From NCBI GenBank assembly GCA_016779945.1, contig JADHMR010000002.1, forward strand, positions 2,083-66,082: DNA of 64,000 nucleotides. The letters are read 5' to 3'. Shown piece by piece: positions 11,118 through 62,448 of the stretch (positions within the stretch are counted from its first letter, which is position 1; every line of letters begins with the position of its first letter). The position numbers were made by a program, and so were the translations under genes. The notes under the pieces were generated by a model. The model was not told the origin of the DNA. It worked only from the letters and a program-made list of their open reading frames with translations, and ran no database searches. Source of the DNA: Bacteroidia bacterium (GTDB taxonomy: Bacteria; Bacteroidota; Bacteroidia; NS11-12g; UBA9320).

Positions 11118-11218
11118 AATGAAGCAGATTTAATTAAGTTTCAAGATTAGATATATTATTCATATTCCTGAAATATATTTTCCAACAAACCATACGAAAA
11201 ATTATTTGTAAAATAATA

Positions 11219-11246
11219 TTGGGAGTATAATAAAAGTGTATTTTTG
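11219..11246 (+). promoter_or_regulatory. candidate Bacteroidota-type promoter of the tRNA operon
   Basis: TATTTTTG (TAnnTTTG -7 box) at 11239..11246, 10 nt before the tRNA-Ser 5' end. A weak ATTG lies 17 nt upstream. Confidence 0.35.
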
Positions 11247-11256
11247 CACTCCTTTT

Positions 11257-11344
11257 GGTGGGATGGGTGAGTGGCTTAAACCAGTAGTTTGCTAAACTGC
11301 CGTACCTCTCAAGGGTACCCCGGGTTCGAATCCCGGTCCCACCG
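11257..11344 (+). tRNA. tRNA-Ser (anticodon GCT), long variable arm; CCA encoded at 11345..11347
   Basis: Hand-folded cloverleaf: acceptor GGTGGGA/TCCCACC, anticodon loop TTGCTAA, long extra arm, T-loop GGTTCGAATCC. Confidence 0.9.
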
Positions 11345-11377
11345 CCAGTAGGATTTGTTCTTTAAAGTGACAAATAT

Positions 11378-11451
11378 GGTTCCATAGCTCAACCGGATAG
11401 AGCAACGGTTTTCTAAACCGTAGGTTCCAGGTTCGAGTCCTGGTGGGATCA
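11378..11451 (+). tRNA. tRNA-Arg (anticodon TCT)
   Basis: Acceptor GGTTCCA/TGGGATC (with G-U pairs), anticodon stem ACGGT/ACCGT with loop TTTCTAA, T-arm CCAGGTTCGAGTCCTGG. Confidence 0.88.
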
Positions 11452-11463
11452 CTTCTTACACCT

Positions 11464-11538
11464 CGGGGTGTAGCGTAGCCCGGTTATCGCGCCTGCTTTG
11501 GGAGCAGGAGGTCGCAGGTTCGAATCCTGCCACCCCGA
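11464..11538 (+). tRNA. tRNA-Pro (anticodon TGG)
   Basis: Acceptor CGGGGTG/CACCCCG, anticodon stem CCTGC/GCAGG with loop TTTGGGA, T-arm GCAGGTTCGAATCCTGC. Confidence 0.9.
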
Positions 11539-11560
11539 CACTGATTATCAGTTGAATAGA

Positions 11561-11590
11561 GTCTCGCTTAACGGCGGGACTTTTTTATTT
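11561..11590 (+). terminator. rho-independent terminator of the tRNA operon
   Basis: GTCTCGC-TTAACG-GCGGGAC hairpin followed by TTTTTTATTT. Confidence 0.7.
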
Positions 11591-12056
11591 GCACACAATT
11601 TGCATAAAATAACCTTTTTAATTGATCAGTTCAACACCCTTGTACCCTTTAAACATATAGGCTTGCTTTATTTAGCCTTTATTCAGAATTGGGGAGGTTG
11701 TGTATCAAGTCATCAAAATTATAGATTGTTTGATATCCATCTTTGAACATATAGACTCCTTTATGTCCTGTTACTTTTTGGTTCTTCTTATAGAGGGATT
11801 GTTGATTTTGATATTGAGTTTGGATTGAGCCAATGAGGAGAACATCGAAATCAATAGAATTAATATGCTAGTTAACCACCTATTTATAATTGTAAGCATC
11901 TCATTTTCACAAAAATATATAAAAAATGAATGGAGATATTTTAAAAAATTAGAGAATAGCATATTATAAAGTTATTAGGGTATTGGAGTATGTTAATTAG
12001 CTTACAGTAAATATAGTAAATTAATAAATGATTGGATTTAATTAACTTTGAATTAC

Positions 12057-15000
12057 ATGAGGTCAAGTCTATTGTGTCTATCTACAATGTGTATTTTGTT
12101 AAGTTCAAATGCCCAGACAATTCGTTTTAATGAGGTAGTTTCCTCAAATTCAGTATATTTTGATGAGGATGGTGATTCTCCTGATTGGATTGAATTACAT
12201 AATTATGGAAATCAAGAAGTTAGCATTGCCAATTGGACTCTTACTGATGATATTGATGATTATGATAAATGGACATTTCCAGACATTACCCTCAATAGCA
12301 ATGAATATTTATTGTTATGGGCATCTTCAAAAGATCGATCGGCTATAAGCTATTCTCGTACCATAGTAAATCAGGGAGATAATTTTAAATATCTAGTACC
12401 CACTGACGAACCGAATTCAGAATGGAAATCTTTGAGTTTTAATGATGCAACATGGTCAGAGGGACCATCTGGCTTTGGTTATGATGATGGTGACGACGCT
12501 ACACTTATACCACAGGGTAGTACTTCATTGTACATTCGAAAGAAGTTTACAGTAGACAATTTATCAGATATGGCTTCTATGGTACTTGATATTGATTATG
12601 ATGATGGGTTTGTAGCTTATATTAATGGCGTGGAGATAGCACGAGCCAATATAAATGGTAACCCGCCATCATATCAAACTACAACAATTCAAGATCATGA
12701 AGCACAAATGTACAATGGAGGTATACCCGAACGTTTTTCTGTAGATGATTTTGCAACTATTTTAAATGAAGGTGAAAATGTAATAGCTATTCAAGCACAT
12801 AATGTTTCATCAAATTCATCAGATTTTACGATTATACCATTTTTGTCGGCAATTTTTACATCACCTAACAACTCAGGTGTAACTCCACCAGTAGTTTTAA
12901 ACCTTTTATCATCAAACTACCACACTAATTTCAGTATATCATCAGATTCTGAAATATTAAGCCTTATTGATAATACGGGTGTATTAGTCGATCAATTAGT
13001 TGTAGAGAATTTGGCTCCTAACACCTCAATCGGTGTTTCTCGAAGTTCTAATGATTTGGTGAGGTTTATTGAAACTACACCGGGTTATCAAAATTCCTCC
13101 AATGAATTTGAAGGTTCAGTTTCAAGCCAAGTGGTTTTTTCACAAAAAGGGGGATTAATTAAAGAACCATTTAATCTTGTTCTGTCTGGTAATCAAGCAG
13201 ATGAAGTTATTCGATATGAATTGGGAGGGGCCAAGCCTAACGAATCATCACCTGAATACACAAATGCAATTAGTATTAGTTCAAATACCAGTGTAAGAGC
13301 AAGAATCTATTCAGAAAATAAAATTCCCTGCCCAATTTATACGGAATCCTATATATTATCTAAAAATCATGAAATAGATGTGATGTTGTTGACAGTGGAA
13401 CCTGATGACTTTTTTCATCAAGATACGGGTATTTATGTGTTTGGGCCAGAAGGAACTTTTGATCAAAACATACCCTTTTTTGGTGCTAATTTTTGGGAAG
13501 ATTGGGAACGACCCATTCATTTTTCTTTTCATGAACAAGGAGAAGATACTTCTGTTAGTTTTAATGCGGGAGTTAAAATATTTGGTGGTTGGAGTAGGGG
13601 ACAAAATGGTCAACGTTCCATGTCTTTATTTGCTAGAGGTCAGTATGGTGATTCAAAGTTTGAACATTCCTTTTTTGATCAATTGCAATACGACGATTTC
13701 GAAGCACTAGTCATTCGAAATTCTGGGCAAGATTGGTTGCGTACATCTATGAAAGACATTACCCTAACAAGTTTGATGCGTGGTTCGGATTTGGATTTTT
13801 CTGAGCACAATCCAGTTGCGACATACATCAACGGGCAATATTGGGGAATGTACAACCTAAGAGAGAAGATAAATGAGCACATGTTGGCTGCCAAACACAA
13901 CGTTAATGCCGATCAAATTACAATACTGACCAATAATGCTGAGGTAATCGAAGGTGATAATGAAGAATATGTAGCATTGATGAATTATGTTGGTACAACT
14001 GATTTATCAATTAACTCAAATTTTGAATATGTAGAACAACGGGTTGATTTGAATCAATATGCTTTATATAAAGCAGCTAATATATTTTTCAATAATACAG
14101 ATTGGCCTGGTAATAATATTAAATATTGGAAACATTCAGAAGGGAAGTGGCGATGGATTATGTATGATACCGATTTTGGTTTTGGACCATGGTGGGATTT
14201 AAATAGTTCCGGTAATAATACCTTAAGTTTCGCACTAGAACCAAGTGGACCAGCATGGCCTAATCCATCTTGGTCAACACTTCTTTTCAGAAGGTTAACT
14301 AGAAACATTGGGTTTAGAAATCAATTTATTAATCGTTATGCAGATGAATTGAATACACGTTTTCTTCCAGCTAATGTGATTGCACATATTAATAAAATTT
14401 ATAGTTCTATTTCGCCTGAGATGACTGCTCATTACGAACGTTGGAGAACAGATCCTTCGCTTTCCTACTACAATGTCAGTATTGATGACATTGATGCCTG
14501 GATTAATTTTTATGTTAATGAGATTCGAAGTTTTGCTGTGAAACGTCACCCTATTGTGAAAGATCATATTTTGTCTGAGTTTAATTTACCTAGCTTTCAT
14601 CCCATAACCATTATCAATTATGATGTTTCTGAAGGTTTTGTGAATGTAAATGATAATCTCAATATTCAAGAGGATTCATGGACTGGAGATTATTTTGAGA
14701 CTGTTCCCATACAGTTAAAGGCTATTGCAAGACAAGGGTATGAATTCTCTCATTGGAGTGGTGATTTATCGTCTACTGATGAGATAATTGAAATAAGTTT
14801 GGAAGATGCCTATGAAATAACACCTAACTTTAAACCTGCGGAATCTTTGGTAAATCCTATAGTTATTAATGAGATAAATTACAGATCTAAAGAAAGTTTT
14901 GACACGGATGACTGGATTGAGTTGTATAATCCAAATGATTCATCAATAGATTTATCTGGTTGGACTATTAAAGATGATAATGATGCTCATATTTTCTCAA

Positions 15001-15557
15001 TTCCATCAGGTACTTCAATCGAGGCGGATGGTTATCTTGTGTTCGTAAAAGATTCAGCTAGATTTTCTTCCCAATTCCCAGAAATTACTAATTACATTGG
15101 AGAACTTGGTTTTGGTTTTGGGCGGACAGATTCTGTTCGATTATATAACGAAAATAACCTTCTTCATGACCAGGTTGGATATCAGTCGAAACTACCCTGG
15201 CCAACTTGTGCGGATAAGACGGGCAAAACCTTGGAACTTATCTCATCAGATCTTGATAATTTACTGCCTGAAAGTTGGAGTTGCATAAATTTACATGGTA
15301 GCCCTAATGTAATTAACGAATTGCAAACTTCCATACTTAATGAAGTTACGTTGTATCCGAATCCAGTTCGAAGTATTTTGACGATAGATGGAATACGAGG
15401 AGCATTCAATACTAAAATTTATTCTAATATTGGACAATTGGTACATTCTTCATCTAATGTCAAACAAATTGATGTGCATTTTTTGATTGATGGTGTGTAT
15501 CATTTAACAATCGAAAAAGAGGGAGAGGTAACAGTTAAAAATTTTGTCAAGTATTGA
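12057..15557 (+). CDS. secreted CotH kinase-family protein flanked by two lamin-tail domains, with T9SS type A C-terminal domain
   Basis: ORF from TTG 12048; ATG 12057 gives signal peptide MRSSLLCLSTMCILLSSNAQ. LTD 1 (IRFNEVVSSN...DWIELHNYG...WTLTDD), a beta-sandwich (FRKKF-type...DDGFVAYINGVEIAR) and a chitobiase-C-like module (IRYELGGAKPNESSPEYT). CotH core (WERPIHFSF...VKIFGGWSRG...LVIRNSGQDW...YINGQYWGMYNLREK). LTD 2 (IVINEINYRS...DWIELYNPN...WTIKDD). CTD VTLYPNPV...GVYHLTIE. Confidence 0.8.
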   Translation: MRSSLLCLSTMCILLSSNAQTIRFNEVVSSNSVYFDEDGDSPDWIELHNYGNQEVSIANWTLTDDIDDYDKWTFPDITLNSNEYLLLWASSKDRSAISYSRTIVNQGDNFKYLVPTDEPNSEWKSLSFNDATWSEGPSGFGYDDGDDATLIPQGSTSLYIRKKFTVDNLSDMASMVLDIDYDDGFVAYINGVEIARANINGNPPSYQTTTIQDHEAQMYNGGIPERFSVDDFATILNEGENVIAIQAHNVSSNSSDFTIIPFLSAIFTSPNNSGVTPPVVLNLLSSNYHTNFSISSDSEILSLIDNTGVLVDQLVVENLAPNTSIGVSRSSNDLVRFIETTPGYQNSSNEFEGSVSSQVVFSQKGGLIKEPFNLVLSGNQADEVIRYELGGAKPNESSPEYTNAISISSNTSVRARIYSENKIPCPIYTESYILSKNHEIDVMLLTVEPDDFFHQDTGIYVFGPEGTFDQNIPFFGANFWEDWERPIHFSFHEQGEDTSVSFNAGVKIFGGWSRGQNGQRSMSLFARGQYGDSKFEHSFFDQLQYDDFEALVIRNSGQDWLRTSMKDITLTSLMRGSDLDFSEHNPVATYINGQYWGMYNLREKINEHMLAAKHNVNADQITILTNNAEVIEGDNEEYVALMNYVGTTDLSINSNFEYVEQRVDLNQYALYKAANIFFNNTDWPGNNIKYWKHSEGKWRWIMYDTDFGFGPWWDLNSSGNNTLSFALEPSGPAWPNPSWSTLLFRRLTRNIGFRNQFINRYADELNTRFLPANVIAHINKIYSSISPEMTAHYERWRTDPSLSYYNVSIDDIDAWINFYVNEIRSFAVKRHPIVKDHILSEFNLPSFHPITIINYDVSEGFVNVNDNLNIQEDSWTGDYFETVPIQLKAIARQGYEFSHWSGDLSSTDEIIEISLEDAYEITPNFKPAESLVNPIVINEINYRSKESFDTDDWIELYNPNDSSIDLSGWTIKDDNDAHIFSIPSGTSIEADGYLVFVKDSARFSSQFPEITNYIGELGFGFGRTDSVRLYNENNLLHDQVGYQSKLPWPTCADKTGKTLELISSDLDNLLPESWSCINLHGSPNVINELQTSILNEVTLYPNPVRSILTIDGIRGAFNTKIYSNIGQLVHSSSNVKQIDVHFLIDGVYHLTIEKEGEVTVKNFVKY

Positions 15558-15574
15558 TGATAGCCTCAGTTGTT

Positions 15575-15597
15575 TAGTTTTATCAATTGAAAACTAG
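15575..15597. terminator. weak AT-rich hairpin between the CotH gene and the cobW-like stump
   Basis: TAGTTTT-ATCAATTG-AAAACTA, a 7-bp stem. No strong U-tract, so only a candidate. Confidence 0.25.
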
Positions 15598-15755
15598 TTA
15601 GCATAGACTCGTTCAACTGGCCATTCGTCTTGGTAACCCTTTTCCCAGTCGGTATTTGCTAGTTCTTCTTTGGTCATTAGACAACTTTTTAATGCTGTTT
15701 TAATCTCTTCTTGGTTCAAGCCTAAACCAATAAAAACGATTTCATTTTTACGATT
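15597..15755 (-). pseudogene. C-terminal remnant of a CobW/COG0523-family GTPase (metallochaperone-like) gene
   Basis: Minus frame ending at stop 15594..15596 reads NRKNEIVFIGLGLNQEEIKTALKSCLMTKEELANTDWEKGYQDEWPVERVYAN*. This matches the remembered CobW_C pattern (xxlVfIG.dld...i...l..CLlt..E......W..dpfP). No start codon and no GTPase domain lie upstream, because the susC promoter and gene begin there. Confidence 0.55.
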
Positions 15756-15786
15756 TGTATTTGAATAACTATTTTCTTTAAATTTG
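15754..15786 (+). promoter_or_regulatory. candidate Bacteroidota -33/-7 promoter of the PUL
   Basis: TTTG (15754..15757), a 21-nt spacer, then TAAATTTG (15779..15786, exact TAnnTTTG). The -7 box overlaps the TTG used by the ORF track, which favours ATG 15814 as the susC start. Confidence 0.45.
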
Positions 15787-15813
15787 TCAAAATTTAATAA
15801 AAAATATAATCAA

Positions 15814-18800
15814 ATGCTCAGATTACCAGTTATACTTTTTTTTACACTATTTAGTTTCGTATTGATAAAAGCTCAAGTTACAGTAGGTGGTATTGTTACT
15901 GATGTATCAACTGGCGAAAAACTTATTGGGGTAACCGTTATAGAGGTTGGTTCTAATAATGGGACTGTCACTGATGAAAATGGTCAGTACACCATTTCAT
16001 TGGGGTCAGATACAGCTTCATTGAAATTCCTATACATTGGTTATACTACTCAAACCATCAAATTAAATAATCTAGTTTTTTTGAATGTTGCTCTTAATTC
16101 TGAAGAGCTTTTGGATGAAGCGATAGTAATAGGTTATGGTGAACAATCCAAAACTAAAATAACATCTGCTGTGTCTACAATTGATGCCAAAACACTAAAA
16201 AAATTACCTGTACCAACTGTAAGTAATGGACTAGAAGGTCTTGCATCTGGTTTATTTGTTCGACAAGGAAGCGGTGAACCTGGTTTTAGTGGTTCTTCTT
16301 TCGAGATCAGAAATTTTGGTAATGCTCTAGTTATTGTTGATGGATCTCCCGGTAATATTGATGATTTAGATCCCAACGAAATTGAAAATATATCCATATT
16401 AAAAGACGCAGCTGCAGCTGCTGTTTATGGTGTTCAAGGTGGTAATGGTGTTATTTTGATAACAACTCGAAAAGGATCCATTGGAAAACCAGAATTAAAC
16501 TATTCTAATCAATTTACGCTGAATTCCTTTACACAATATCCAGATTTCTTAAACTCTGTAGATTATGCTACAGTTCTCAATGAAGGTCTTGTTAATGATG
16601 GTCAATCTCCATTTTATACCCCTGAAGAAATTGAAGCATTTAGATCAGGCTCAGATCCAATAAATTATCCTAATGAAAATTGGAAAGAACTAATGTTCAA
16701 GAAGTATGGTTTTCAGCAGAGACATAACTTAAATATTTCGGGGGGTAATCAAAAGATTAAATACTTTGCCTCTGCTGGATTTTTAAATCAAGGTTCTAAC
16801 TATACAGAAGATGTATTGAACTATAATCAATACAACCTTAGAACAAATTTGAATGCTTATGTAAATGAATATCTAACTTTACAATTAAACATAGCTGGAC
16901 GTAGAAGACTTAATGAGGCTCCGGGCTATTCAGCATATGATATTTTTAGAGAGTTAAGTAGAGCCTTGCCAAACAATTTAGCTTATTATCCTGACGGAAC
17001 ACCCACAAGACCAAGTTTTAGTCCTAATCATATTATCGAAGGTATACGTGACTTTAATGCAGGATATTATCGTTCAAGAAATAATAATGTAGATGCAAAA
17101 ATTTCCATGGAGTGGGATGCTGCTCAAGTTGGTATAATTGGTATGAAATTAAAATCTTATGCTTCATTAGTTAATAATGTTTATTACAATAAAACTTGGG
17201 GTAAAAGCTATGAACTTTTTACATTAAATAGATTGACAGGTGACTTTGATGAGTATGTAGCTAGTCCTGAAGGGTCGTTTAGCGAAACAGTTCTAACACA
17301 TAGTATGAACTACAGCAACCACTATGTATTACAGGAATCGGCCAATTACGACCGCAAATTCAAAAAACATAGTATATCAGCATTATTGCTTGGAGAGCTG
17401 CAAAACAATCAAGGAGAAAATTTTTATGGTAGAAGACAGGATTATCAGTCAGATTTAATCGATCAACTCTTCGCTGGTTCAAATGAAAATAAAGATGCTA
17501 ATGGAGGAGAATACCGTGAAAATAGACTTGGATTAGTTGGTAGGCTGAGTTATGATTATTCGTCAAAATATTTTGTTGAATCATCATTTAGATATGATGG
17601 ATCATCAAAATTTGCTCCAGGCAATCAATGGGGATTTTTCCCTTCAGTTTCTGGTGGTTGGAGAATTTCTGAAGAAGATTTTTATAAAGATTTTAAAGCT
17701 ACAGTTCCAGAACTTAAATTAAGAGCCTCTTTAGGTACTGCAGGTTACGATGGTACTGCTGCATATCAATGGTTATCAGGTTTTACATACAATCACTTCT
17801 TTGCAATAAATGAAACGGCAATACCAACAATAGATAACACTTCTCTTGCAAATACAGATTTAACGTGGGAAACAATCACTACTCAGGATGTGGGTTTAGA
17901 TATCGAGTTTTTGAATCGTGAGTTAAAACTTTCTTTTGATTATTTTAAACGTTATAAAAAAGGGGTATTAGCTTATGCTTCTGGAAGTGTTCCTAATACT
18001 TTAGGAGTTGGATTGGCTGCTCAGAATTTACATGAGTATTCTAATCAAGGTTTTGAAACATCTTTGACTTATAATAAGAAATTAAATAGTAATTGGACTA
18101 TAGGAGCATTTAGTAATTTCTCTTATTCACGAGAAACTATCGAATTTATTGATGAAGCTATTATTGAAGATGATTTTATGAGAGGAAATCTAATGTTAAC
18201 TGGTGGATTTACTAATCTACGTAGAGGATATCTTTCAGATGGATTATTCCAATCACAAGAGGAAATAGATGATAGTCCAGTACAAGATAATAATGATAAC
18301 TCTACCATACAACCTGGTGATGTAAGATATGTTGACTTAAATGGCGACGGTGTTATTGATGTGCAAGACCAAAAAGTATTTGGTAATGGTGATAAGCCAG
18401 CTTATAATTTTTCATTAAATCTATCTGCCCAATACAAAAATTTTGCATTGTCTGTTTTACTTACCGGTGCTGCTGGATATGATATTTACTTGGATGGAGA
18501 GGCTCAGAGTCCACTTCGTAATGGCTTTAATGGTTATTCCTATCAATTGGATTATTGGACGCCTGAGAATGCTGATGCCAAATACCCCAGAATTTCAGAT
18601 GGGGGATTTAATGACAACAATTTCAGGTATTCTGATTTTTGGAAAAGAAGTGGTAATCATCTAAGATTTAAAAATATCAATTTAAGCTATACACTTCCCA
18701 AATTTGGTAAAAATAATGCTGGTTTCAAAGAGATTAGAATTTTTGCGACAGCCTATAATCTATTTGTTATTAAAACTTATGACGAGGATTTTGATCCTCA

Positions 18801-18873
18801 AATGCAATCATCAACGGGGTGGTATTACCCTCAAAATAAATCAACCACTTTTGGTATTAATCTTACACTATAA
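15814..18873 (+). CDS. SusC/RagA-family TonB-dependent outer-membrane transporter (no STN domain)
   Basis: ORF from 15784. Signal peptide MLRLPVILFFTLFSFVLIKAQ, CarboxypepD_reg-like VTVGGIVTDVSTGEKLIGVTV...TDENGQY, plug IVIGYGEQSKTKITSAVS, a long barrel ending TTFGINLTL. SusD gene follows 11 nt downstream. Confidence 0.9.
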   Translation: MLRLPVILFFTLFSFVLIKAQVTVGGIVTDVSTGEKLIGVTVIEVGSNNGTVTDENGQYTISLGSDTASLKFLYIGYTTQTIKLNNLVFLNVALNSEELLDEAIVIGYGEQSKTKITSAVSTIDAKTLKKLPVPTVSNGLEGLASGLFVRQGSGEPGFSGSSFEIRNFGNALVIVDGSPGNIDDLDPNEIENISILKDAAAAAVYGVQGGNGVILITTRKGSIGKPELNYSNQFTLNSFTQYPDFLNSVDYATVLNEGLVNDGQSPFYTPEEIEAFRSGSDPINYPNENWKELMFKKYGFQQRHNLNISGGNQKIKYFASAGFLNQGSNYTEDVLNYNQYNLRTNLNAYVNEYLTLQLNIAGRRRLNEAPGYSAYDIFRELSRALPNNLAYYPDGTPTRPSFSPNHIIEGIRDFNAGYYRSRNNNVDAKISMEWDAAQVGIIGMKLKSYASLVNNVYYNKTWGKSYELFTLNRLTGDFDEYVASPEGSFSETVLTHSMNYSNHYVLQESANYDRKFKKHSISALLLGELQNNQGENFYGRRQDYQSDLIDQLFAGSNENKDANGGEYRENRLGLVGRLSYDYSSKYFVESSFRYDGSSKFAPGNQWGFFPSVSGGWRISEEDFYKDFKATVPELKLRASLGTAGYDGTAAYQWLSGFTYNHFFAINETAIPTIDNTSLANTDLTWETITTQDVGLDIEFLNRELKLSFDYFKRYKKGVLAYASGSVPNTLGVGLAAQNLHEYSNQGFETSLTYNKKLNSNWTIGAFSNFSYSRETIEFIDEAIIEDDFMRGNLMLTGGFTNLRRGYLSDGLFQSQEEIDDSPVQDNNDNSTIQPGDVRYVDLNGDGVIDVQDQKVFGNGDKPAYNFSLNLSAQYKNFALSVLLTGAAGYDIYLDGEAQSPLRNGFNGYSYQLDYWTPENADAKYPRISDGGFNDNNFRYSDFWKRSGNHLRFKNINLSYTLPKFGKNNAGFKEIRIFATAYNLFVIKTYDEDFDPQMQSSTGWYYPQNKSTTFGINLTL

Positions 18874-18884
18874 ATAAATTTTAA

Positions 18885-20657
18885 ATGAAACGTAACCTTC
18901 TATTTTTAACACTATTAGTTTCAGTAATTAGTTCTTGTAAGAAAGAATTTTTAAATCAACCTCCATTGGATCGAATTACAGAATCGGATGTATGGAGTGA
19001 TCGCGATTTAATGGATACTTACATATTTCAAATATACGATAACATGCCATGGGATTATTTAAAAGATTTTGGCGGTGGTGCAGGTTGGGGAGCTCATCGG
19101 GACGCCTTAACTGACCTAGCCATGAGCACATATTCTTGGACACCGGCATACAATACTATACGCCCTGGTAATTGGGGTACATCAACTAATTATTGGCCAT
19201 TGGATTGGTGGGGGTATTATAATATTTGGAAAATTAATTATTCTATAGAAAATATTAAGCCTTTGAGTGAAGATGTATTAACAAAAACAGAAAAAGAAAA
19301 CCGTTTGGGTGAATTATATTTTCTGAGAGCGTATTGTTATTTTGCTATGGCTAAACGATATGGTGGAGTGCCAATCATTCTTGAAGCACAAGATCCAGAT
19401 AATACACCCGAAGATGAATATTTTCCGTCCAGAGATTCTGAAGAAGCTGTATATAATCAGGTCATTAATGATGTACAATTAGCATTTGATATTTTACCAA
19501 ATCGCTGGTCTAGCCAAAAAGGTAGAGCTGGTAAATGGGCTGCAAAAGCTCTTGAGTCGAGGGCCTCTTTGTATGCTGCTACTATTGCAAAATATGGTAC
19601 AGTTCAACTGAATGGTGTAGTGGGTATTTCGTCGGGTAAGGCATCTGAATATTTCCAGATCTCATTGGATGCTTCTAATAAAATAATTAATGAAGGTGGA
19701 TATGTACTTTTTAATCAATATCCAGAACCAGCAGAAAATTATAGTAAGTTATTTACTGATGAGACAGAGGACGAAACTATTTTCATGAAAGTATGGCTAC
19801 CTTATGATAAAGGACATTCATATGATTTACGAAATTCACCCTATAGTTACCGTGTTGATTGGGGGTCAAGCATGTCTCCAACCAAAGGATTGATGGATAG
19901 TTATGAAATGTTAAATTCAGGTCTTCTGCCTAGTGAACCAAATTCAGGCTATGACCCTAACAACCCTTTTGAAGATCGAGATCCTAGATTTAAAGGAACA
20001 CTACTTACAAATAATGATAATTTTCAAGGATCTGCAGTGGAGACATGGTATGCAACGGTAAGAAATGGCGAAATTGATTACAATACTGCTACAGGAGTAG
20101 GAAAGGATGGGATGGGTGTTCATCCAGATGCTACTAAGACTGGTGCATATGTTAGAAAATATCTTGCAGATGGGTCGAGTCCGTTGTTAATACAACAATA
20201 TTATTCTGGTCAAGACTGTATTCTATTTCGATTGGGTGAAATATACTTAAATGCTGCAGAAGCTGCTGTTGAACTTGGATTAGATGGTGAAGCTCGATCA
20301 TTTATTGAGCCTATCCGAACGAGAGCTGGATTAAAACAAAATCTTGATTTTAGTTCATATTCTGGAATAGAACTCAGAGATCGAATTAGAAATGAAAGAA
20401 AGATCGAATTAGCATTTGAGGACCATAGGTATTGGGACGTGCGAAGATGGAGAACTGCAGAAGTTGATCTGAGTGTAATGACTGAAGGAATTAGATCCTT
20501 AAGATATATAGATAACTTTGGAAATGAAACCTTTACATATGAAATAATTGAACCAGAACCTCAAAAAACGAATTTCTTTCCAAGACACTATTATATACCT
20601 ATAGGTCAGGATAGAAGAAATAATAATCCTAAGTTAATTGAAAATCCAGGATATTAA
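18885..20657 (+). CDS. SusD/RagB-family glycan-binding outer-membrane lipoprotein
   Basis: Lipobox LLVSVISSC. FLNQPPLDRITESDVWSD, LRAYCYFAMAKRYGGVPI, NERKIELAFEDHRYWDVRRW. Confidence 0.9.
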   Translation: MKRNLLFLTLLVSVISSCKKEFLNQPPLDRITESDVWSDRDLMDTYIFQIYDNMPWDYLKDFGGGAGWGAHRDALTDLAMSTYSWTPAYNTIRPGNWGTSTNYWPLDWWGYYNIWKINYSIENIKPLSEDVLTKTEKENRLGELYFLRAYCYFAMAKRYGGVPIILEAQDPDNTPEDEYFPSRDSEEAVYNQVINDVQLAFDILPNRWSSQKGRAGKWAAKALESRASLYAATIAKYGTVQLNGVVGISSGKASEYFQISLDASNKIINEGGYVLFNQYPEPAENYSKLFTDETEDETIFMKVWLPYDKGHSYDLRNSPYSYRVDWGSSMSPTKGLMDSYEMLNSGLLPSEPNSGYDPNNPFEDRDPRFKGTLLTNNDNFQGSAVETWYATVRNGEIDYNTATGVGKDGMGVHPDATKTGAYVRKYLADGSSPLLIQQYYSGQDCILFRLGEIYLNAAEAAVELGLDGEARSFIEPIRTRAGLKQNLDFSSYSGIELRDRIRNERKIELAFEDHRYWDVRRWRTAEVDLSVMTEGIRSLRYIDNFGNETFTYEIIEPEPQKTNFFPRHYYIPIGQDRRNNNPKLIENPGY

Positions 20658-20668
20658 GAATAACCATT

Positions 20669-21496
20669 ATGACAATTAAAAAATACGCCATTTATTTATC
20701 GATATTAAGTGTAATTATCACTGGATGTAAGGATAGCTCTGATGAACCGAATGTGGCACCATCAGCCACCGATGCAGATTTTTCATATACATCAGAACCG
20801 GATAATCCGAATATTATTACTTTTAGAGCCTCACCAAGTGTTGAAACATGGTATTCTCACTGGAACTTTGGCGATAATACTTCTGCTGAAGGATTAGAGG
20901 TTAAAAAAACATTTTACGTCAAAGGAGATTATGATGTGAAGTTTAAAATCTTTACAAATGGGGGAACAGCTGAGTCTGTGAAAACGATCACAATTGAAAA
21001 TGATTTGACAGGATCCAATTTAATCACTAATGGTAAATTAGATAATGATTCATCTTGGTCTTTATTATCTATTTCTCCTGGAGTTGACATAACATTTGAA
21101 AATGGAAATGCTACCTGGACAGGTGGTGGTTGGGGACAGACTGGAATTTACCAACAGTTTGACGTTGAGGCTAATAAGAATTACCAAATACAAATGGATG
21201 TAGTAGGAAGTGGTATGACAGATTGTTGGTTTGAAGTATACATAGGTACAACTACACCTAAAGATGGGGTAGATTACACTGATGGAGGAATACGTTTAGG
21301 ACTAAATACGTGGGATGGATGTGGAAGTGAAGCTTTTGATGGACCGTTAACTAGTCTTTCTTGTAGTTTAGGAGGTGGAGACGGTTCTTTTGAGTTTGAT
21401 GTAGATAAAAGCGTATACATCGTTATTAGAAGTGGTGGTGCAAACCTTGGTACTTCTGGTGTGAGTGTAGATAATATTACAGTTCGAGCATTATAA
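20669..21496 (+). CDS. surface lipoprotein with PKD domain and galactose-binding-like (CBM-like) domain; SGBP candidate
   Basis: Lipobox SVIITGC. PKD signature DADFSYT...WNFGDNTSAEG...HTFxxxGxYxV-like (KKTFYVKGDYDVKF). The C-terminal half, LITNGKLDNDSSW...WGQTGIYQQF...YQIQMDV...WFEVYIG, resembles CBM4/9/22-type beta-sandwiches. Confidence 0.65.
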   Translation: MTIKKYAIYLSILSVIITGCKDSSDEPNVAPSATDADFSYTSEPDNPNIITFRASPSVETWYSHWNFGDNTSAEGLEVKKTFYVKGDYDVKFKIFTNGGTAESVKTITIENDLTGSNLITNGKLDNDSSWSLLSISPGVDITFENGNATWTGGGWGQTGIYQQFDVEANKNYQIQMDVVGSGMTDCWFEVYIGTTTPKDGVDYTDGGIRLGLNTWDGCGSEAFDGPLTSLSCSLGGGDGSFEFDVDKSVYIVIRSGGANLGTSGVSVDNITVRAL

Positions 21497-21525
21497 ACAA
21501 TAACTAGCACGACAAATAAATTTAA

Positions 21526-22566
21526 ATGATAACAAGATTAATACAAACAATAATTTTATCAATCCTAATTGTAACAAGTACGATAGGTCAGGTTAATATT
21601 ACCTTTGAGGTAAATACATCAACACTTGGTAGTATTAGCCCTGATGGATTATTTATAGGAGGTGGTAGCGGTTTTGGTAAGCCCGGAGAAAATAGACTTG
21701 CAGACATTGATGGAAACGGTATATACACTATCACACTTCAAAGAGACAAGGGCTTTTCTAGCTTTTATATTTTTTTGAATGGTAATTGTGAGGATTGGTC
21801 ATGTAAAGAAAAACTAGCTGGATTACCTTGTTCTGATCCTAAAAATTTTGATGACCGATTTTTACCACCGGTTATGTCAGATACTACAATTAAAGCTTGT
21901 TTTAATACGTGTGATAATGATGGGAGTTGTACAATTATCACCGATTCAGTTGATATTACATTTGAGTTGAATACCTCAGAAATTGAAGTTGACCCTGGAG
22001 GATTATTTTTAGCAGGTGGTAGTGGTTTTGGCGTTGCGGGAGATAACCCCATGATTGATCCAGAAGATGATGGTATTTATACAGTAACTGTTAGGCGTGC
22101 AAAAGGATTTTTAAGCTATTATACGTTTCTTAATGGAAATTGTGGAGATTGGTCATGTAAAGAGAATATAGAGGGACAACCTTGTGCTGATCCAGATGCA
22201 TTTAATGATCGGTTTATTCCACCTGTCATGAATGATACAATTATTAAAACATGTTTTGCGAAATGTACCAATGATGGTTCTTGTCAAACTGCGTTTATTG
22301 GAGAATTAAAAACGGATATAAACCTATTTACCATTAGACCTACTTTGGTCAATGATTATATTAACATTCAATACAATCATGAGTCAGTATCCATGAATAA
22401 AGAAATTAAAGTTGTCAATTCTTCTGGTCAGGTCTTTGAAAAATTTATAACTAAAAATAATGCTAAAACTCAATTAAACACGCTATCATATACAAGTGGA
22501 GTCTATTTTATAACTATCCAAACATCAAATAAAATTCTAACTAAAAAATTTATAGTTCAGAAATAA
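21526..22566 (+). CDS. secreted protein with two copies of an uncharacterised six-Cys module and T9SS type A C-terminal domain
   Basis: Signal peptide ...IVTSTIGQ, two ~113-aa repeats, then CTD (RPTLVNDYINIQY...GVYFITIQTSNKILTKKFIVQK). I do not recognise a named family for the repeat. Confidence 0.75.
   Translation: MITRLIQTIILSILIVTSTIGQVNITFEVNTSTLGSISPDGLFIGGGSGFGKPGENRLADIDGNGIYTITLQRDKGFSSFYIFLNGNCEDWSCKEKLAGLPCSDPKNFDDRFLPPVMSDTTIKACFNTCDNDGSCTIITDSVDITFELNTSEIEVDPGGLFLAGGSGFGVAGDNPMIDPEDDGIYTVTVRRAKGFLSYYTFLNGNCGDWSCKENIEGQPCADPDAFNDRFIPPVMNDTIIKTCFAKCTNDGSCQTAFIGELKTDINLFTIRPTLVNDYINIQYNHESVSMNKEIKVVNSSGQVFEKFITKNNAKTQLNTLSYTSGVYFITIQTSNKILTKKFIVQK
21592..22284 (+). repeat. tandem duplication of a ~113-codon Cys-rich module (21592..21948 and 21949..22284)
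   Basis: Hand alignment gives 69 of 113 positions identical, with all six Cys conserved (NGNC.DWSCKE....PC.DP..F.DRF.PPVM.DT.IK.CF..C.NDGSC). Confidence 0.85.
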
Positions 22567-22576
22567 CATCAGGTTT

Positions 22577-25321
22577 ATGCAAATACATAGAATTTTTAAC
22601 ATTGGAATAATCCTATTTAGCTTAATTGCTAAATGCTCGTTTGATGCAAACGCTCAACACTTTTTGAAAACAAACGGAAAAGCGATTGTAAATGAGAACC
22701 AAGACACCATTATTCTAAGAGGAATGGGGCTTGGAGGTTGGATGGTAAAGGAAGGGTATATGATGCAAACAAATGCTTTTGCTAATGCTCAATATGAGAT
22801 AATGGATCTTATTGAAGATTTGATTGGAGAGGAGAACAAGGACACCTTCAATAATAGGTGGTTGTCAAATCATGTGAGGAAGGGGGATATTGATTCATTA
22901 AAATCATGGGGATTTAATTCAGTAAGAGTTCCCATGCATTACAATTTATTTACATTACCTATTCAAGAAGAGCAAATTGAAGGTCAGCAAACATGGATAC
23001 CTAAAGGTTTTGAGTTGTTAGACAGCCTTGTTGGTTGGTGCAAACAAGAAGAGATGTATGTGATTTTAGATTTACATGCAGCTCCAGGTGGTCAAGGAAA
23101 AGATGCTGCTATATCAGATTACAATCCAAACAAACCATCACTTTGGGAAAGTGAAGCTAACAGAGACAAAATGGTTGCTTTGTGGCAACGGATAGCCAAA
23201 CATTATGCAAATGAGCAATGGGTAGCTGGATATGACTTATTGAATGAGCCCAATTGGGATTTGCCAGGTGGAATAGCCATAAAAAACCTATACAAAGAAA
23301 TTACGGATAGTATTCGTAAAGTTGATCAAAAACATATTATTTTCATTGAAGGGAATTGGTTTGCAAATGATTTTACAGGGTTAACACCTCCTTGGGATAT
23401 TAATTTAGTCTATTCTCCTCACAAATATTGGTCTTTTAATGATCAATCTTCAATAGGTAGTTTCCTAGAAATAAAAAATAAATATAATGTTCCTCTTTAT
23501 CTTGGAGAAACAGGTGAAAACTCCAATGAGTGGTTTCAAAGTGCTGTCAAGTTATATGAAGATAATGATATAGGTTGGGCGTGGTGGCCATTGAAAAAAA
23601 TTGAGTCTATTTCAGGACCTCTCTCTATTATAAAAAGTGAAGAATATCAAAATTTACTAGATTATTGGAATAATGGGGGTACAAAGCCCTCGATTGCGTT
23701 TTCTAAAAAAGTTTTGTTCCAATTGGCTGAAGATTTAAAAATAGAAAACTGTCGCTATCAAAATGATGTAATTGATGCTCTATTTAGGCAACCCTTTTCA
23801 GATGAAGCCATTCCTTTTAAAAAGCATATAATTCCAGGTAGGATATTTGCATCTGATTATGATCTAGGAAAAGCAGGTGAAGCATACGATGATAATGATG
23901 TAGCTAACTATTCTGTTTCGACAGGAGAATATAGTGGTTGGAATAATGGATGGGCATATCGGAATGATGGTGTTGATATCGAAAAATGTGAAGATTTATC
24001 GAGTAATGGATTTAATATTGGTTTTTTAGAACAAGGAGAATGGATCCAATATGAAGTAGATATTGAATCTGACGGGGTTTACGACTTAAATGTAAGAACT
24101 TCATCTGGGGGATCGGGTGGTCGAATGTATTTTGCCATTGACAACCAGAGCATTACAGAATCTATTTTTGTCTACCCATCAGGTGGATGGCAAAAATGGA
24201 CAACAACAACCATATCTGATCTTGTCTTATATCAAGGTAATCATAAGTTGAGGTTTTATGTTGACCGAGCGGGTTTTAATGTGAATAGCTTTGATTTTAT
24301 AAAAACTACTCGCCAGATTGGTAATATATCAACAAAATTTATGGCAGCTGAAACGAAAGATGAATATAGCATTCAAATGAATACTAATAAGTTTCTTTCG
24401 TACTTAGATAAAATTGATTTTGATGATTTTGAAATCCTTGTTAATGGTTCTAGTATTCCAATTGGATCCATCTCCATGGATGTAACAAATCCAAAGATTA
24501 TTAATTTTAGACTGAATTATACGCTCAACTATTCTGATGAAATTAAAATTTCATATGATGGAGATCAGATTGTCTCAACTGATGGTTCCAATCTTGAGCT
24601 GTTTTCTTTAAAGAATGTGAGAAATAATATAGCTTTTGTACATCAGATTCCCACAAAGATTGAATCTGAAAGCTATACATTTCAGAAAGGAGTGGATCTT
24701 GAAGAGACAACGGATGTCGGTGGTGGGTTTAATATTGCTTATTTAGATCCTAATGATTATCTTGATTATGAAATAAATGTTACTTCCGCAGGTGAATATC
24801 AAATTAATTATCGAACTGCTGCTGAATATGGAACAGGTTCTCTGAAATTGCAGTTCATAGATACTGCTGGTGTATTGACTGAAATTAGTAACCCTACATT
24901 TTTATCAACTGGAGATTGGCAAAATTGGAAAACAACCAGTGAGACTGTTCAATTAGATGTTGGTAGATATACGATGAGGATTTTAATTACACAATCACCT
25001 TTCAATTTAAATTGGTTAGAATTTAAAGCAAAATCTTTATTTACAAAAGATAAAAATTCTCAATTTAACTCTTTTTCATTGTTTCCTAATCCTTGTAGTA
25101 ATTTGTTCAATATACAATTTGCCACAGATCGTATACAAGACATTAATTTATCTATTTATGACTTCAAAGGTAAAACAATGTCATCTAAAAGTTATTTAAA
25201 AACATCATCTCTGAATGAACAAATTTCTTTAAAAGATTACCCCTCTGGTATCTATCTTGTGAAATTAAGATTAGATAATGGTTCTGTCTCTACAAAAAGA
25301 ATAATTAAAGCAAAAAAATAG
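22577..25321 (+). CDS. GH5 glycoside hydrolase with two CBM6-like modules, an Ig-like spacer and T9SS type A C-terminal domain
   Basis: GH5: RGMGLGGWMVKEGYM, WGFNSVRVPMHYNLF, HAAPGGQ, DLLNEPNW (acid/base Glu), PHKYW, LYLGETGENS (nucleophile Glu), WAWWPLK. CBM6-like at about 23828..24304 and 24644..25027 (IPGRIFASDYD.../IPTKIESESYT... with G.WQ.W motifs). CTD FSLFPNPC...GIYLVKLRL. Confidence 0.85.
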   Translation: MQIHRIFNIGIILFSLIAKCSFDANAQHFLKTNGKAIVNENQDTIILRGMGLGGWMVKEGYMMQTNAFANAQYEIMDLIEDLIGEENKDTFNNRWLSNHVRKGDIDSLKSWGFNSVRVPMHYNLFTLPIQEEQIEGQQTWIPKGFELLDSLVGWCKQEEMYVILDLHAAPGGQGKDAAISDYNPNKPSLWESEANRDKMVALWQRIAKHYANEQWVAGYDLLNEPNWDLPGGIAIKNLYKEITDSIRKVDQKHIIFIEGNWFANDFTGLTPPWDINLVYSPHKYWSFNDQSSIGSFLEIKNKYNVPLYLGETGENSNEWFQSAVKLYEDNDIGWAWWPLKKIESISGPLSIIKSEEYQNLLDYWNNGGTKPSIAFSKKVLFQLAEDLKIENCRYQNDVIDALFRQPFSDEAIPFKKHIIPGRIFASDYDLGKAGEAYDDNDVANYSVSTGEYSGWNNGWAYRNDGVDIEKCEDLSSNGFNIGFLEQGEWIQYEVDIESDGVYDLNVRTSSGGSGGRMYFAIDNQSITESIFVYPSGGWQKWTTTTISDLVLYQGNHKLRFYVDRAGFNVNSFDFIKTTRQIGNISTKFMAAETKDEYSIQMNTNKFLSYLDKIDFDDFEILVNGSSIPIGSISMDVTNPKIINFRLNYTLNYSDEIKISYDGDQIVSTDGSNLELFSLKNVRNNIAFVHQIPTKIESESYTFQKGVDLEETTDVGGGFNIAYLDPNDYLDYEINVTSAGEYQINYRTAAEYGTGSLKLQFIDTAGVLTEISNPTFLSTGDWQNWKTTSETVQLDVGRYTMRILITQSPFNLNWLEFKAKSLFTKDKNSQFNSFSLFPNPCSNLFNIQFATDRIQDINLSIYDFKGKTMSSKSYLKTSSLNEQISLKDYPSGIYLVKLRLDNGSVSTKRIIKAKK

Positions 25322-25342
25322 CTATTTACTAGATCTTATATT

Positions 25343-26872
25343 ATGAAGAATTTGAAACTAGTTTGTTTGTATTTTTTTCAATATTTTTTTAACATAAAAT
25401 TTATGAATTGTAAAACTAGCATTACTATAATATGTCTGATTTTATTGGGCTTTATATGTAAAGATACTTTTGGACAATCTCGAGTCCAATTAAACTCAAA
25501 AGATAATAGAGACAGTGTATTAGTCTATACTACTGCAAAAAATACAGATTTGAAGTTAACACTAACATCTAAGCCTGCTTTTGTTTCTGCATTCCAACCG
25601 TTGGAAACAGAGGTTTCTATATTTGTAAATCCAAATAAAACCTTTCAAACTTTCTTTGGAATAGGTGGTGCTATTACTGACGCTTCTGCAGAAGTTTTCT
25701 CATCATTATCCTCCTTAAAGCAAGAAGAGTTGTTAAACGCATATTATAGCTTAGAAAATGGTATAGGATATTCATTGGTTAGAACTCATATTCATAGTTG
25801 TGATTTCAGTAGTGATAGTTATACTTATGTATCAGATAGTGACAAATCATTAAAAACTTTTTCAATTGAACATGACAAAAAATACAGAATCCCAATGATC
25901 AAACGTGCTACGGTAATGGCTAGTGGTCATTTACCTTTATATGTAAGTCCGTGGAGTCCACCAGCATTTATGAAAACCAACAAAAATATGCTTCGAGGGG
26001 GAAAGTTATTATTTGAGTATAGAGATGCTTGGGCAATGTACTATGTAAAATTCATTAAAGCATATGAAAAAGAAGAATTGCCAATTTGGGGGCTGACTAT
26101 TCAAAATGAGCCAATGGCAACACAACGCTGGGAATCGTGTATTTATTCTGCAGAAGAGGAAAGAGACTTTTTAAAGAATCATTTAGGACCAACATTAGAT
26201 AAAGAAGGACTAGGAGATAAAAAAATAATTGTTTGGGATCACAATAGGGATTTAATTGTCAATCGTGCGAATACTATATTCGACGACCCTGAAGCATCCA
26301 GGTATGCATGGGGTATTGGTTTTCACTGGTATGAAACTTGGACCGGAGGAGAACCCATGTTTTCTAATTTGGGTAATATAAATGAATCTTATCCAACTAA
26401 AAATCTTGTATTTACTGAAGGTTGTAATGAAGGTTTTGATGCTTCTAAATATCAATATTGGCCGAATGCAGAACGTTATGGAAAATCTATGATCAATGAT
26501 TTTAATAATGGAACTGTAGCTTGGACTGATTGGAATATCCTTTTGGATGAAACAGGTGGCCCCAATCATGTTAATAACCTTTGTTTTGCTCCAATTCATG
26601 CAGATACCAGAACAGATGAATTAATTTATACACCTAGTTATTACTATATCGGTCATTTTTCAAAATTTATTAGACCAGGAGCTAAGAGAGTTAGTACTGT
26701 TTCTAGTAGGAGTATTCTTGAGGCCACGTCCTTTATCAATGACGGAGGTAAAATGGTTACTATAATTATGAATTCAACTGATAAAAATATCAAATATCAA
26801 ATGTATGTAAATTCAAAGTCAGTTTCTATGAAAATTTTACCACACTCAATACAGACATTACTCTATAAATAG
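25343..26872 (+). CDS. GH30 glycoside hydrolase (glucosylceramidase-like / beta-1,6-glucan-active type)
   Basis: FFGIGGAITDASAEV, YSLVRTHIHSCDFS, SPWSPPAFMKTN, WGLTIQNEP (acid/base), LVFTEGC (nucleophile). Collinear with GBA-type GH30 as remembered. Alternative start ATG 25403 gives a cleaner signal peptide. Confidence 0.85.
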   Translation: MKNLKLVCLYFFQYFFNIKFMNCKTSITIICLILLGFICKDTFGQSRVQLNSKDNRDSVLVYTTAKNTDLKLTLTSKPAFVSAFQPLETEVSIFVNPNKTFQTFFGIGGAITDASAEVFSSLSSLKQEELLNAYYSLENGIGYSLVRTHIHSCDFSSDSYTYVSDSDKSLKTFSIEHDKKYRIPMIKRATVMASGHLPLYVSPWSPPAFMKTNKNMLRGGKLLFEYRDAWAMYYVKFIKAYEKEELPIWGLTIQNEPMATQRWESCIYSAEEERDFLKNHLGPTLDKEGLGDKKIIVWDHNRDLIVNRANTIFDDPEASRYAWGIGFHWYETWTGGEPMFSNLGNINESYPTKNLVFTEGCNEGFDASKYQYWPNAERYGKSMINDFNNGTVAWTDWNILLDETGGPNHVNNLCFAPIHADTRTDELIYTPSYYYIGHFSKFIRPGAKRVSTVSSRSILEATSFINDGGKMVTIIMNSTDKNIKYQMYVNSKSVSMKILPHSIQTLLYK

Positions 26873-26873
26873 C

Positions 26874-28211: not shown

Positions 28212-28334
28212 AATAATAATTTTATCCGTTTGTGAATATTGAATTTACGTAAATTATTGGGAATACAGAATGTTTTTGAATCAAATATTTATACGTTGTA
28301 TTTACTTGTAAATTCAAGTTTGGTTTCATTTATC

Positions 28335-30643: not shown

Positions 30644-30677
30644 GTGGTTTAAGTCTTTTCTTTGTTATTAAAAAAAA

Positions 30678-62239: not shown

Positions 62240-62288
62240 GGGTAGATCAGCATATCATTGTATTAGTAAGTATATAAGAAACATAATT

Positions 62289-62438: not shown

Positions 62439-62448
62439 CTAAAAACAA

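Follow-up and report, generated by a model that had tools for sequence, protein, structure and literature searches.

Gene content and layout of the locus

The stretch of DNA analyzed here, henceforth referred to as the window, spans 64,000 nucleotides of contig JADHMR010000002.1 from a Bacteroidia bacterium (assembly GCA_016779945.1) and contains a polysaccharide utilization locus (PUL) of six open reading frames (ORFs) on one strand at 15784-26872. Coordinates are window positions on the forward strand unless otherwise indicated. In order, the genes encode a SusC-like transporter, a SusD-like lipoprotein, a lipoprotein with a PKD domain, a protein with two six-cysteine modules, a GH5-CBM6-Ig-CBM6 protein and a GH30 enzyme. 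Assignment as a PUL follows from the adjacent susC- and susD-like genes and the co-directional GH5 and GH30 genes downstream. An earlier reading made from the letters alone, henceforth the sequence-only reading, had described six packed co-directional genes in this order, and the operon is real. The spacers of 11, 11, 29, 10 and 21 nt given there were reproduced mechanically, but the last, between GH5 and GH30, is an ORF-calling artefact produced by a remnant of a deleted GH3 gene at 25343-25402. The GH30 gene starts at ATG 25403, as in the NCBI annotation and in all relatives. Similarly, susC starts at ATG 15814 and not at TTG 15784, in agreement with the gene called in an independently assembled contig (L083, below) and in relatives. 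No terminator-like site was detected in the operon spacers, and the GC content of the window is uniformly ~ 0.33.

The SusC-like TonB-dependent transporter (15814..18873; 1019 aa from the ATG) matches TIGR04056 with 843 bits and contains CarboxypepD_reg and Plug domains. No STN match was returned by the profile search, as the sequence-only reading had stated. The SusD-like lipoprotein (18885..20657; 590 aa) carries a lipobox ending in VISSC, matches Pfam SusD_RagB at 8e-49 and is identical to MBL6729379.1. The arrangement is not that of a PUL controlled by an extracytoplasmic function (ECF) sigma factor and its anti-sigma factor, given that SusC has no STN domain and no ECF/FecR pair is adjacent.

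Relatives of the locus and its PUL type

Species genomes in GTDB were scanned with the GH5 catalytic domain, which yielded 502 relatives, and all window proteins were then compared by tblastn with the 80 loci kept; individual loci are cited below by our numbers (L001 and onwards). The order SusC-SusD-PKD-sixCys-GH5-(GH3/GH16)-GH30 was found in more than 20 loci at 49-95% protein identity, including L002-L006, L011, L012, L018, L019, L025, L027, L029, L033, L039, L048 and L085-L088. Identities to the window proteins were 69-95% for SusC, 72-95% for SusD, 51-77% for the PKD lipoprotein, 49-87% for the six-cysteine protein, 65-94% for GH5 and 65-93% for GH30. The relatives include three close Bacteroidia metagenome-assembled genomes (MAGs; L001-L003, 76-98% identity), about 12 Saprospiraceae/Lewinellaceae MAGs and one MAG labelled Mesoflavibacter. 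Their GH5 proteins have the full architecture of 910-920 aa. Additional genes in the relatives encode a GH3 enzyme between GH5 and GH30 (in L002 at 12737-14581), a GH16-CBM6 enzyme with a C-terminal domain (CTD) for the type IX secretion system (T9SS), a small GH16, and a regulator directly upstream of susC. A GH16 is frequent in these loci.

The same gene strings have been catalogued. Laminarin PUL variants C/D of North Sea Flavobacteriia read regulator (Y_Y_Y/propeller)-(CTD protein)-SusC-SusD-PKD-GH5,CBM6 (Por CTD)-hypothetical-GH16-GH30, with no GH17 (Kappelmann et al. 2019, PMC6298971). PULs with GH5_46 and GH30_1, with or without GH16, occur in Formosa, Polaribacter and Aurantivirga MAGs, and GH16 is missing from some of the Formosa PULs (Krueger et al. 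2019, PMC6794258). The proposal of a locus outside the known PUL archetypes is therefore not supported, in view of the published laminarin C/D strings and of the same order in more than 20 loci. In our judgement the locus is probably a secondarily reduced member of the GH5(CBM6)-GH30 SusCD family, that is, of laminarin PUL variant C/D. Its assignment to a beta-glucan or laminarin-type system, made already in the sequence-only reading, holds.

Identity to the close relatives is mosaic across 21526-26872. The six-cysteine protein is 98% identical to that of L001 and 86% to that of L002, and GH30 is 85% identical to that of L001 and 93% to that of L002. This pattern suggests, on sequence comparison, recombination within the PUL among related populations.

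Replacement of the region upstream of susC

In the relatives, the gene directly upstream of susC encodes a regulator of ~ 980 aa (984) with a signal peptide, Reg_prop propellers, a Y_Y_Y domain, one transmembrane segment near residue 800 and a C-terminal LuxR/GerE-type helix-turn-helix. Homologues of bguR occupy this position in L002, L003, L004, L008, L011, L019, L029, L033, L048 and L085-L087. BguR is described as a one-component activator of 940 aa that spans the membrane and occurs at beta-glucan PULs only (laminarin, beta-1,2-glucan), type C included (Bartosik et al. 2026, bioRxiv 10.64898/2026.01.10.698779). A direct repeat, TGTCGTAGTATTGTCGTAG, precedes the susC ATG by 86-175 nt in 14 of the 15 relatives with upstream DNA and may be the BguR operator. 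The repeat is absent from the whole window at up to three mismatches.

Comparison with L085, a 541-kb contig, locates the change. Gene order in L085 is RsmG-GT2-tRNA-Ser/Arg/Pro-esterase-CTD (minus strand)-BguR-like-SusC...GH5-GH3-GH30-RmuC-Sua5. Homology between the window and L085 by blastn is confined to 9413-11656 (78% nucleotide identity) and 15803-28142 (88%), while L085 2246-6918, which holds the esterase gene, the regulator gene and the intergenic region, has no counterpart in the window. Between conserved flanks, ~ 4.7 kb in L085 thus corresponds to ~ 4.1 kb of different DNA in the window. The lineage-specific segment occupies 11657..15802, where the relatives have the esterase-CTD gene, the BguR-type regulator gene and the susC operator/promoter, and it ends 11 nt before the susC ATG. 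A simple deletion of the regulator was rejected as an explanation, as the first 200 nt upstream of the L002 and L003 regulators find no match in the window and L085 shows a replacement.

The last conserved feature before the replaced segment is a cluster of three tRNA genes, tRNA-Ser(gct), tRNA-Arg(tct) and tRNA-Pro(tgg), at 11257..11539 (ARAGORN), with the same three at 1850-2131 in L085. It lies ~ 115 nt before the left breakpoint in the window and in relatives, marking a tRNA-adjacent variable spot. The replacement segment itself encodes a protein of 1169 aa (12048..15557) with CotH (Pfam 4e-45), lamin-tail (LTD, 2.5e-33) and type A T9SS C-terminal (Por_Secre_tail, 2e-8) domains; the syntenic relatives whose upstream DNA is available (L002, L003, L085) have no CotH protein before susC, so that it is not a PUL component there. 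It is followed at 15594..15779, on the reverse strand, by the 3' remnant of a gene for a CobW/COG0523 GTPase. The remnant reads ...NRKNEIVFIGLGLNQEEIKTALKSCL...YAN* and matches Pfam CobW_C at E = 1.4e-5 over model positions 61-94 of 94, i.e. the last third and the stop. The presence of this fragment between the CotH gene and susC indicates that the inserted segment came from another genomic context. Recombination by the tRNA cluster has thus swapped the BguR-type activator gene, the operator-like repeat and the native promoter region for foreign DNA consisting of the CotH gene and the CobW fragment.

The junctions were found again in an independent assembly. Logan contig L083 is 99.99% identical to the window over 11557-30657 and spans both the regulator and the GH3 junctions, and an assembly chimera was rejected as the main explanation, although this contig may derive from the same or a sister sample. 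Exact searches with junction 35-mers gave no match in JGI metagenome contigs.

Homologues of GH16, GH17, GH3, HTCS, SusR, AraC and BguR were all absent from the 64 kb, including when the L002 and L003 regulators were used as tblastn queries. The absence of GH16, GH17 and GH3 and of a linked hybrid two-component (HTCS), SusR, AraC or ECF/anti-sigma regulator had been reported in the sequence-only reading, and it was confirmed except for an ECF sigma/FecR pair 35 kb away. That pair, an ECF sigma factor gene followed by a FecR-type anti-sigma gene, lies at 61748-63372 at the 3' end of the window and probably begins another (STN-type) TonB-dependent or PUL system outside it. Because every close relative has the BguR-type regulator, the operator-like repeat and GH3, the regulator-less and GH3/GH16-less state of the window is, by this sequence comparison, a derived one that arose by recent local losses.

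Two observations concern the same region in other genomes. In L086 (~ 978-980; ENA ERZ23496825 scaffold_27), another member of the same population, the BguR-like gene reads TAA in place of TCA, in frame, near residue 701 of its 984; this nonsense change could be a second, independent inactivation of the regulator or a sequencing error. In relatives the PUL is also accompanied by a T9SS-tailed protein resembling esterases and PHB depolymerases, whose gene lies before bguR in L085 (2340-3491, minus strand) and between GH5 and GH30 in L025 (9936-11114); the window has no such gene.

Deletion of GH3 and the candidate promoter

A second deletion removed GH3. Alignment by blastn shows a clean deletion. 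Set against both ends of GH3 in L002 and L003 (the GH5-GH3 and GH3-GH30 junctions), the loss proves to be in frame, with the GH30 start kept. The 60-nt scar at 25343..25402 still holds the start codon of GH3 and about 12 codons (MKNLKLVCLYFF...) in frame with the GH30 leader.

A pattern search located a candidate Bacteroidota -33/-7 promoter, TTTG-N21-TAAATTTG, at 15754..15786, ending 28 nt before the susC ATG. Since the replaced block extends to 11 nt before this ATG, the -33 TTTG lies inside the CobW fragment. Transcription of the cluster would now be BguR-independent, possibly driven from this element made at the new junction. A sigma-70 promoter scan was uninformative, with 73 promoter-like sites against 86 expected.

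GH5 and GH30 enzymes

The GH5 protein (22577..25321; 914 aa) displays, by Pfam and NCBIfam profiles, the GH5-CBM6-Ig-CBM6 architecture proposed for it: a GH5 domain (Pfam Cellulase, 2e-32), a CBM6/35 module at about residues 460-573, an Ig-like linker, a CBM6 at 697-817 (CBM_6 1.5e-39, two copies) and a type A T9SS CTD at 835-910 (Por_Secre_tail, 8.5e-15). The catalytic motifs NEP (223-225) and GETGE (310-314) are intact. Among PDB entries the best match was 9ku5 with 127 bits, and no close PDB subfamily was found; endoglucanases followed with 55-58 bits, fungal exo-beta-1,3-glucanases with 37-39 bits and the endoglycoceramidase 6jyz with 32 bits. The likeness to exo-beta-1,3-glucanases (GH5_9) suggested earlier is accordingly weak, ranking under both the endoglucanases and 9ku5. 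The C-terminal CBM6 resembles CBM6 modules that include the laminarin-related 5fui and 1w9s, and the first module resembles the CBM6 of an arabinoxylanase (2y8k).

The GH30 enzyme (25403..26872; 489 aa, identical to MBL6729383.1) matches Pfam GH30 at 4e-73 and retains the motifs QNEP and TEGC. Among PDB structures it is closest to SrfJ (290 bits) and human GBA (257 bits), versus 167 bits for the next group (5ngk). These values bear out the glucosylceramidase-like character noted before and agree with GH30_1, although they are not a formal subfamily assignment. Against the GH30_3 endo-beta-1,6-glucanase model based on BT3312 (NCBIfam NF053856), the enzyme scored 226.5 bits, far below the cut-off of 700 bits. 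Its signal peptide ends in DTFG|QS and contains a Cys in place of which L002 has Ser (alignment inspected by eye); on these grounds the protein is probably a periplasmic signal-peptidase-I substrate.

Scores with the type A CTD model (TIGR04183, cut-off 23) were 42.8 bits for the six-cysteine protein and 45.7 bits for GH5; neither GH30 nor the PKD lipoprotein reached the cut-off. The count of three T9SS-routed proteins among the four that are not transport proteins is therefore reduced to two, the six-cysteine protein and GH5, because the GH30C domain of GH30 reaches residue 506 of 509 (numbering of the 509-aa ORF) and profile searches returned no CTD match for it. Nor is the T9SS routing non-canonical, as the sequence-only reading had held, since a CTD on the endo-enzyme is part of the laminarin C/D archetype.

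Putative binding proteins

The third gene (20669..21496) encodes a putative surface glycan-binding lipoprotein of 275 aa. A PKD domain (Pfam PKD_4) and a lipobox Cys20 were found as expected from the description of a PKD- and CBM-like lipoprotein, and the C-terminal part is modelled as a CBM4/SGBP-B-like beta-jelly-roll. The AlphaFold model has a mean predicted local distance difference test (pLDDT) of 88.4, and the best Foldseek matches are the surface glycan-binding protein SGBP-B of Bacteroides (7kwc, E = 4e-10; 7kv7, a laminaritriose complex) and the CBM4 structure 1gui. The protein thus models as an SGBP-B/CBM4-like beta-glucan binder.

The fourth gene (21526..22566) encodes a T9SS-secreted protein of 346 aa whose only significant profile match is the T9SS tail. 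Two repeats of ~ 117 aa (residues ~ 21-137 and ~ 138-255), each with six Cys (positions 88-135 and 206-253), precede a type A CTD, confirming the two six-cysteine modules, with 12 Cys in all. Per-column figures were available for 10 of the 12 Cys, and all of these are at least 90% conserved among 44 homologues. Foldseek searches with the model (pLDDT 83.5) matched a CBM26 tandem (6b15, E = 9e-6), CBM20 (8x8k, TMt 0.71) and a T9SS CTD; whole-chain template-modelling (TM) scores of this three-domain model are low, and only these domain-level matches are interpretable. Distant homologues match CBM48, X25 and CBM53 profiles. The modules are accordingly candidate CBM20/26-like sandwiches in their predicted fold, and the protein is a candidate glycan-binding protein.

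The six-cysteine family is small, with 268 clusters at E ≤ 1e-5, the majority with a T9SS tail. The number of modules varies from 2 to 4 across homologues (L021 1071-3110, L043 1203-2417, L073 4-777; also L006, L025 and L048). In some Saprospiraceae loci the gene does not follow the PKD gene but precedes susC, the place that a "Por secretion CTD protein" takes in the published variant C strings.

Surroundings in the window

A bacteriorhodopsin-family gene is present at 700-1536 (Pfam 4e-42), and the clusters of ten window proteins (exact matches within MBL6729374-413) include Tara sequences. The host is probably a light-harvesting planktonic member of the Bacteroidia. The window is also rich in T9SS substrates. 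In addition to the CotH protein and a protein at 35748-37070, two large type B (CHU_C) cargo proteins are encoded at 5779-9375 and 32670-34721, the first type of domain in one of them being PKD_6 repeats and that in the other a legume-lectin domain.

Discussion

Proposed function

From gene content and predicted localization, the following scheme may be drawn. The GH5-CBM6-Ig-CBM6 enzyme and the six-cysteine protein would be exported by the T9SS, bind a beta-1,3/1,6 (or mixed) glucan at or near the cell surface and cut it to oligosaccharides. These would be captured by the PKD/CBM4-like lipoprotein and SusD and imported by SusC. The GH30_1-like enzyme, which has a signal peptide only, would then remove beta-1,6-glucose branches in the periplasm, and the final exo-beta-glucosidase step of GH3, together with any GH16 activity, would be supplied from elsewhere in the genome. 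The presumption of a beta-1,3/1,6-glucan as substrate is based on the enzymes encoded in the orthologous loci, on the association with BguR and on the modelled fold of the SGBP.

More tentatively, the locus may represent a natural regulator swap in an uncultured, proteorhodopsin-bearing lineage of marine Bacteroidia. The PUL would have been uncoupled from BguR and placed under a promoter in foreign DNA, giving constitutive expression of GH5, the two binders, SusCD and GH30, with GH3 and GH16 outsourced; the six-cysteine modules would form a new disulfide-stapled, beta-glucan-binding CBM family of CBM20/26-like fold. We regard this full account as speculative and its being right in every part as rather unlikely.

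Evidence for and against a working laminarin-type locus

Several points weigh against a functional, laminarin-directed cluster, and they concern either its expression or its substrate. The 64 kb of the window are all of the genome that was visible. The match named by the sequence-only reading as the one candidate promoter does lie at its position, but the pattern TTTG-N21-TAAATTTG is not enriched, occurring twice in the window versus 2.5 times expected by chance. In Formosa agariphila KMM3901, deletion of bguR abolishes both PUL transcription and growth on laminarin (Bartosik et al., bioRxiv 10.64898/2026.01.10.698779), and for this reason the loss of regulator and operator could mean silence. 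With respect to substrate, the GH5_46 label is carried over to the window GH5 from proteins of the same architecture and context in the cited papers, and the two characterized GH5_46 enzymes are active on carboxymethyl cellulose (CMC) or xylan. Variant C itself is without experimental verification on laminarin (Krueger et al., PMC6794258). Lastly, Mariniflexile rhizosphaerae (CP022985, L082 2464-10828) has a SusC, a SusD and a PKD lipoprotein that are 67%, 68% and 53% identical to those of the window in a GH32 fructan PUL. The SusC/SusD/PKD cassette alone therefore does not fix the substrate, and it seems to move between PULs of different substrate.

The points on expression lead to the alternative that the cluster is a silenced, decaying remnant, no longer induced after the loss of activator, operator and GH3, in which the short time since these losses would alone account for the intact ORFs. 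We consider this possible but doubtful. BguR is an essential activator in the laminarin PUL that was studied, the native sequence in front of susC is gone to within 11 nt of the ATG along with the regulator and operator, and GH3 is lost as well; the variant is found only in its source samples, and its junction 35-mers are absent from the JGI contigs. Conversely, all six ORFs (~ 11 kb) are uninterrupted with intact catalytic motifs, the GH3 deletion kept frame and GH30 start, and a near-consensus promoter match lies at the right distance from susC. Selection was compared between the window branch and the L002 branch, using L003 as the outgroup. Relative to synonymous changes, amino-acid changes are in excess on the window branch, with an odds ratio of 1.39 for the six PUL genes and the same value for the flanking housekeeping controls RmuC and Sua5; because the two are equal, relaxed selection specific to the PUL was rejected. 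For GH5 and GH30 alone the ratio on the window branch again exceeds that on the L002 branch, a weak signal (Fisher p = 0.02) on the side of decay. On balance the remaining genes of the cluster would still be functional, as judged from their sequences.

The points on substrate lead to a second alternative, that the same machinery acts on another target such as beta-1,6-glucan/pustulan, a mixed-linkage beta-1,3/1,4-glucan or a beta-1,4 glucan/xylan-type wall polymer. Besides the CMC and xylan activities of GH5_46 enzymes and the unverified substrate of variant C, this alternative can draw on the binding of several beta-glycans by CBM6 (Herlemann et al.), on the likeness of the first CBM to that of an arabinoxylanase, and on the location of GH5_46/GH30_1-type SusC/D pairs in clusters apart from the main laminarin cluster (Krueger et al., PMC6794258). 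It is nonetheless unlikely. In relatives the cluster is accompanied by GH16, by GH3 and by a regulator of the BguR type, and BguR homologues have been found only in beta-glucan PULs; the model of the PKD lipoprotein best matches the laminaritriose-binding SGBP-B and CBM4; and GH30 falls well short of the endo-beta-1,6-glucanase model (226 versus 700 bits).

Use of glycosphingolipids by an endoglycoceramidase-type GH5 and a glucosylceramidase-type GH30, offered as an option in the sequence-only reading, is highly improbable: GH30 is collinear with human glucosylceramidase (257 bits) and GH5 has one weak endoglycoceramidase match (6jyz, 32 bits), but GH5 is far nearer to endoglucanase-type enzymes, the locus encodes two CBM6 modules and an SGBP-B/CBM4-like binder, its orthologues carry GH16, GH3 and BguR, and in marine laminarin PULs the GH30_1 members have been described as exo-beta-1,6-glucanases.

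Significance

The turnover of laminarin by marine Bacteroidota constitutes a large flux of carbon. PULs of the GH5_46/GH30_1 type C are frequent in metagenomes, yet the type has never been biochemically characterized. The window offers a natural experiment, a type C PUL devoid of BguR, operator and GH3 but intact in other respects, beside sister populations that have all three. If the cluster is expressed, PUL control can be rewired by cassette replacement and the capture and import core is useful alone; if it is silent, the locus documents how PULs are lost. The six-cysteine protein and the PKD/CBM4-like lipoprotein are, from their models, candidates for new beta-glucan-binding modules. The points of greatest interest are the possible BguR-independent drive by the replaced 5' region and the ligand of the six-cysteine modules.

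Comparison with known systems

The beta-1,6-glucan PUL of Bacteroides thetaiotaomicron (BT3312, GH30_3) shares with the window a GH30 in a SusCD locus aimed at beta-glucan, but the window enzyme is nearer to GH30_1 structures and scores 226.5 bits against the NF053856 cut-off of 700. Bacteroides beta(1,3)-glucan loci with SGBP-B (PDB 7kwb, 7kwc, 7kv5, 7kv6 and 7kv7; PMC7157763) likewise place a small multi-domain surface glycan-binding lipoprotein after the SusCD pair. Identity to the window lipoprotein is only 14-18%, with whole-chain TM scores of 0.26-0.32, and in the gut loci the enzymes are GH16/GH158 surface lipoproteins rather than a T9SS-exported GH5, with an HTCS as regulator.

The GH32 PUL of M. 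rhizosphaerae has in common with the window the SusC/SusD/PKD cassette and an endo-type enzyme with a T9SS CTD in the cluster. There, however, this enzyme is a GH32, the regulator is a sugar-binding hybrid two-component protein, and neither an operator-like repeat nor GH5, GH30 and six-cysteine genes are present.

For the BguR laminarin PUL of Formosa agariphila, the correspondence is with the relatives and not with the window. The relatives match it in the architecture of BguR, in its placement directly upstream of susC and in a conserved intergenic repeat, whereas the window lacks regulator and repeat; the enzymes are GH5 and GH30 here versus GH16_3, GH17, GH30_1, GH149 and GH158 in Formosa.

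The closest correspondence is with laminarin variant C/D (PMC6298971, PMC6794258). Shared features are SusC-SusD followed by a PKD protein, a GH5 with CBM6 and T9SS CTD, a GH30, the absence of GH17 and an extra CTD or hypothetical protein. The window differs in having no Y_Y_Y/propeller regulator, no GH16 and none of the GH3 of its closest relatives, and in the second CBM6 of its GH5. The window locus is a reduced version of this catalogued system, not a new kind of PUL.

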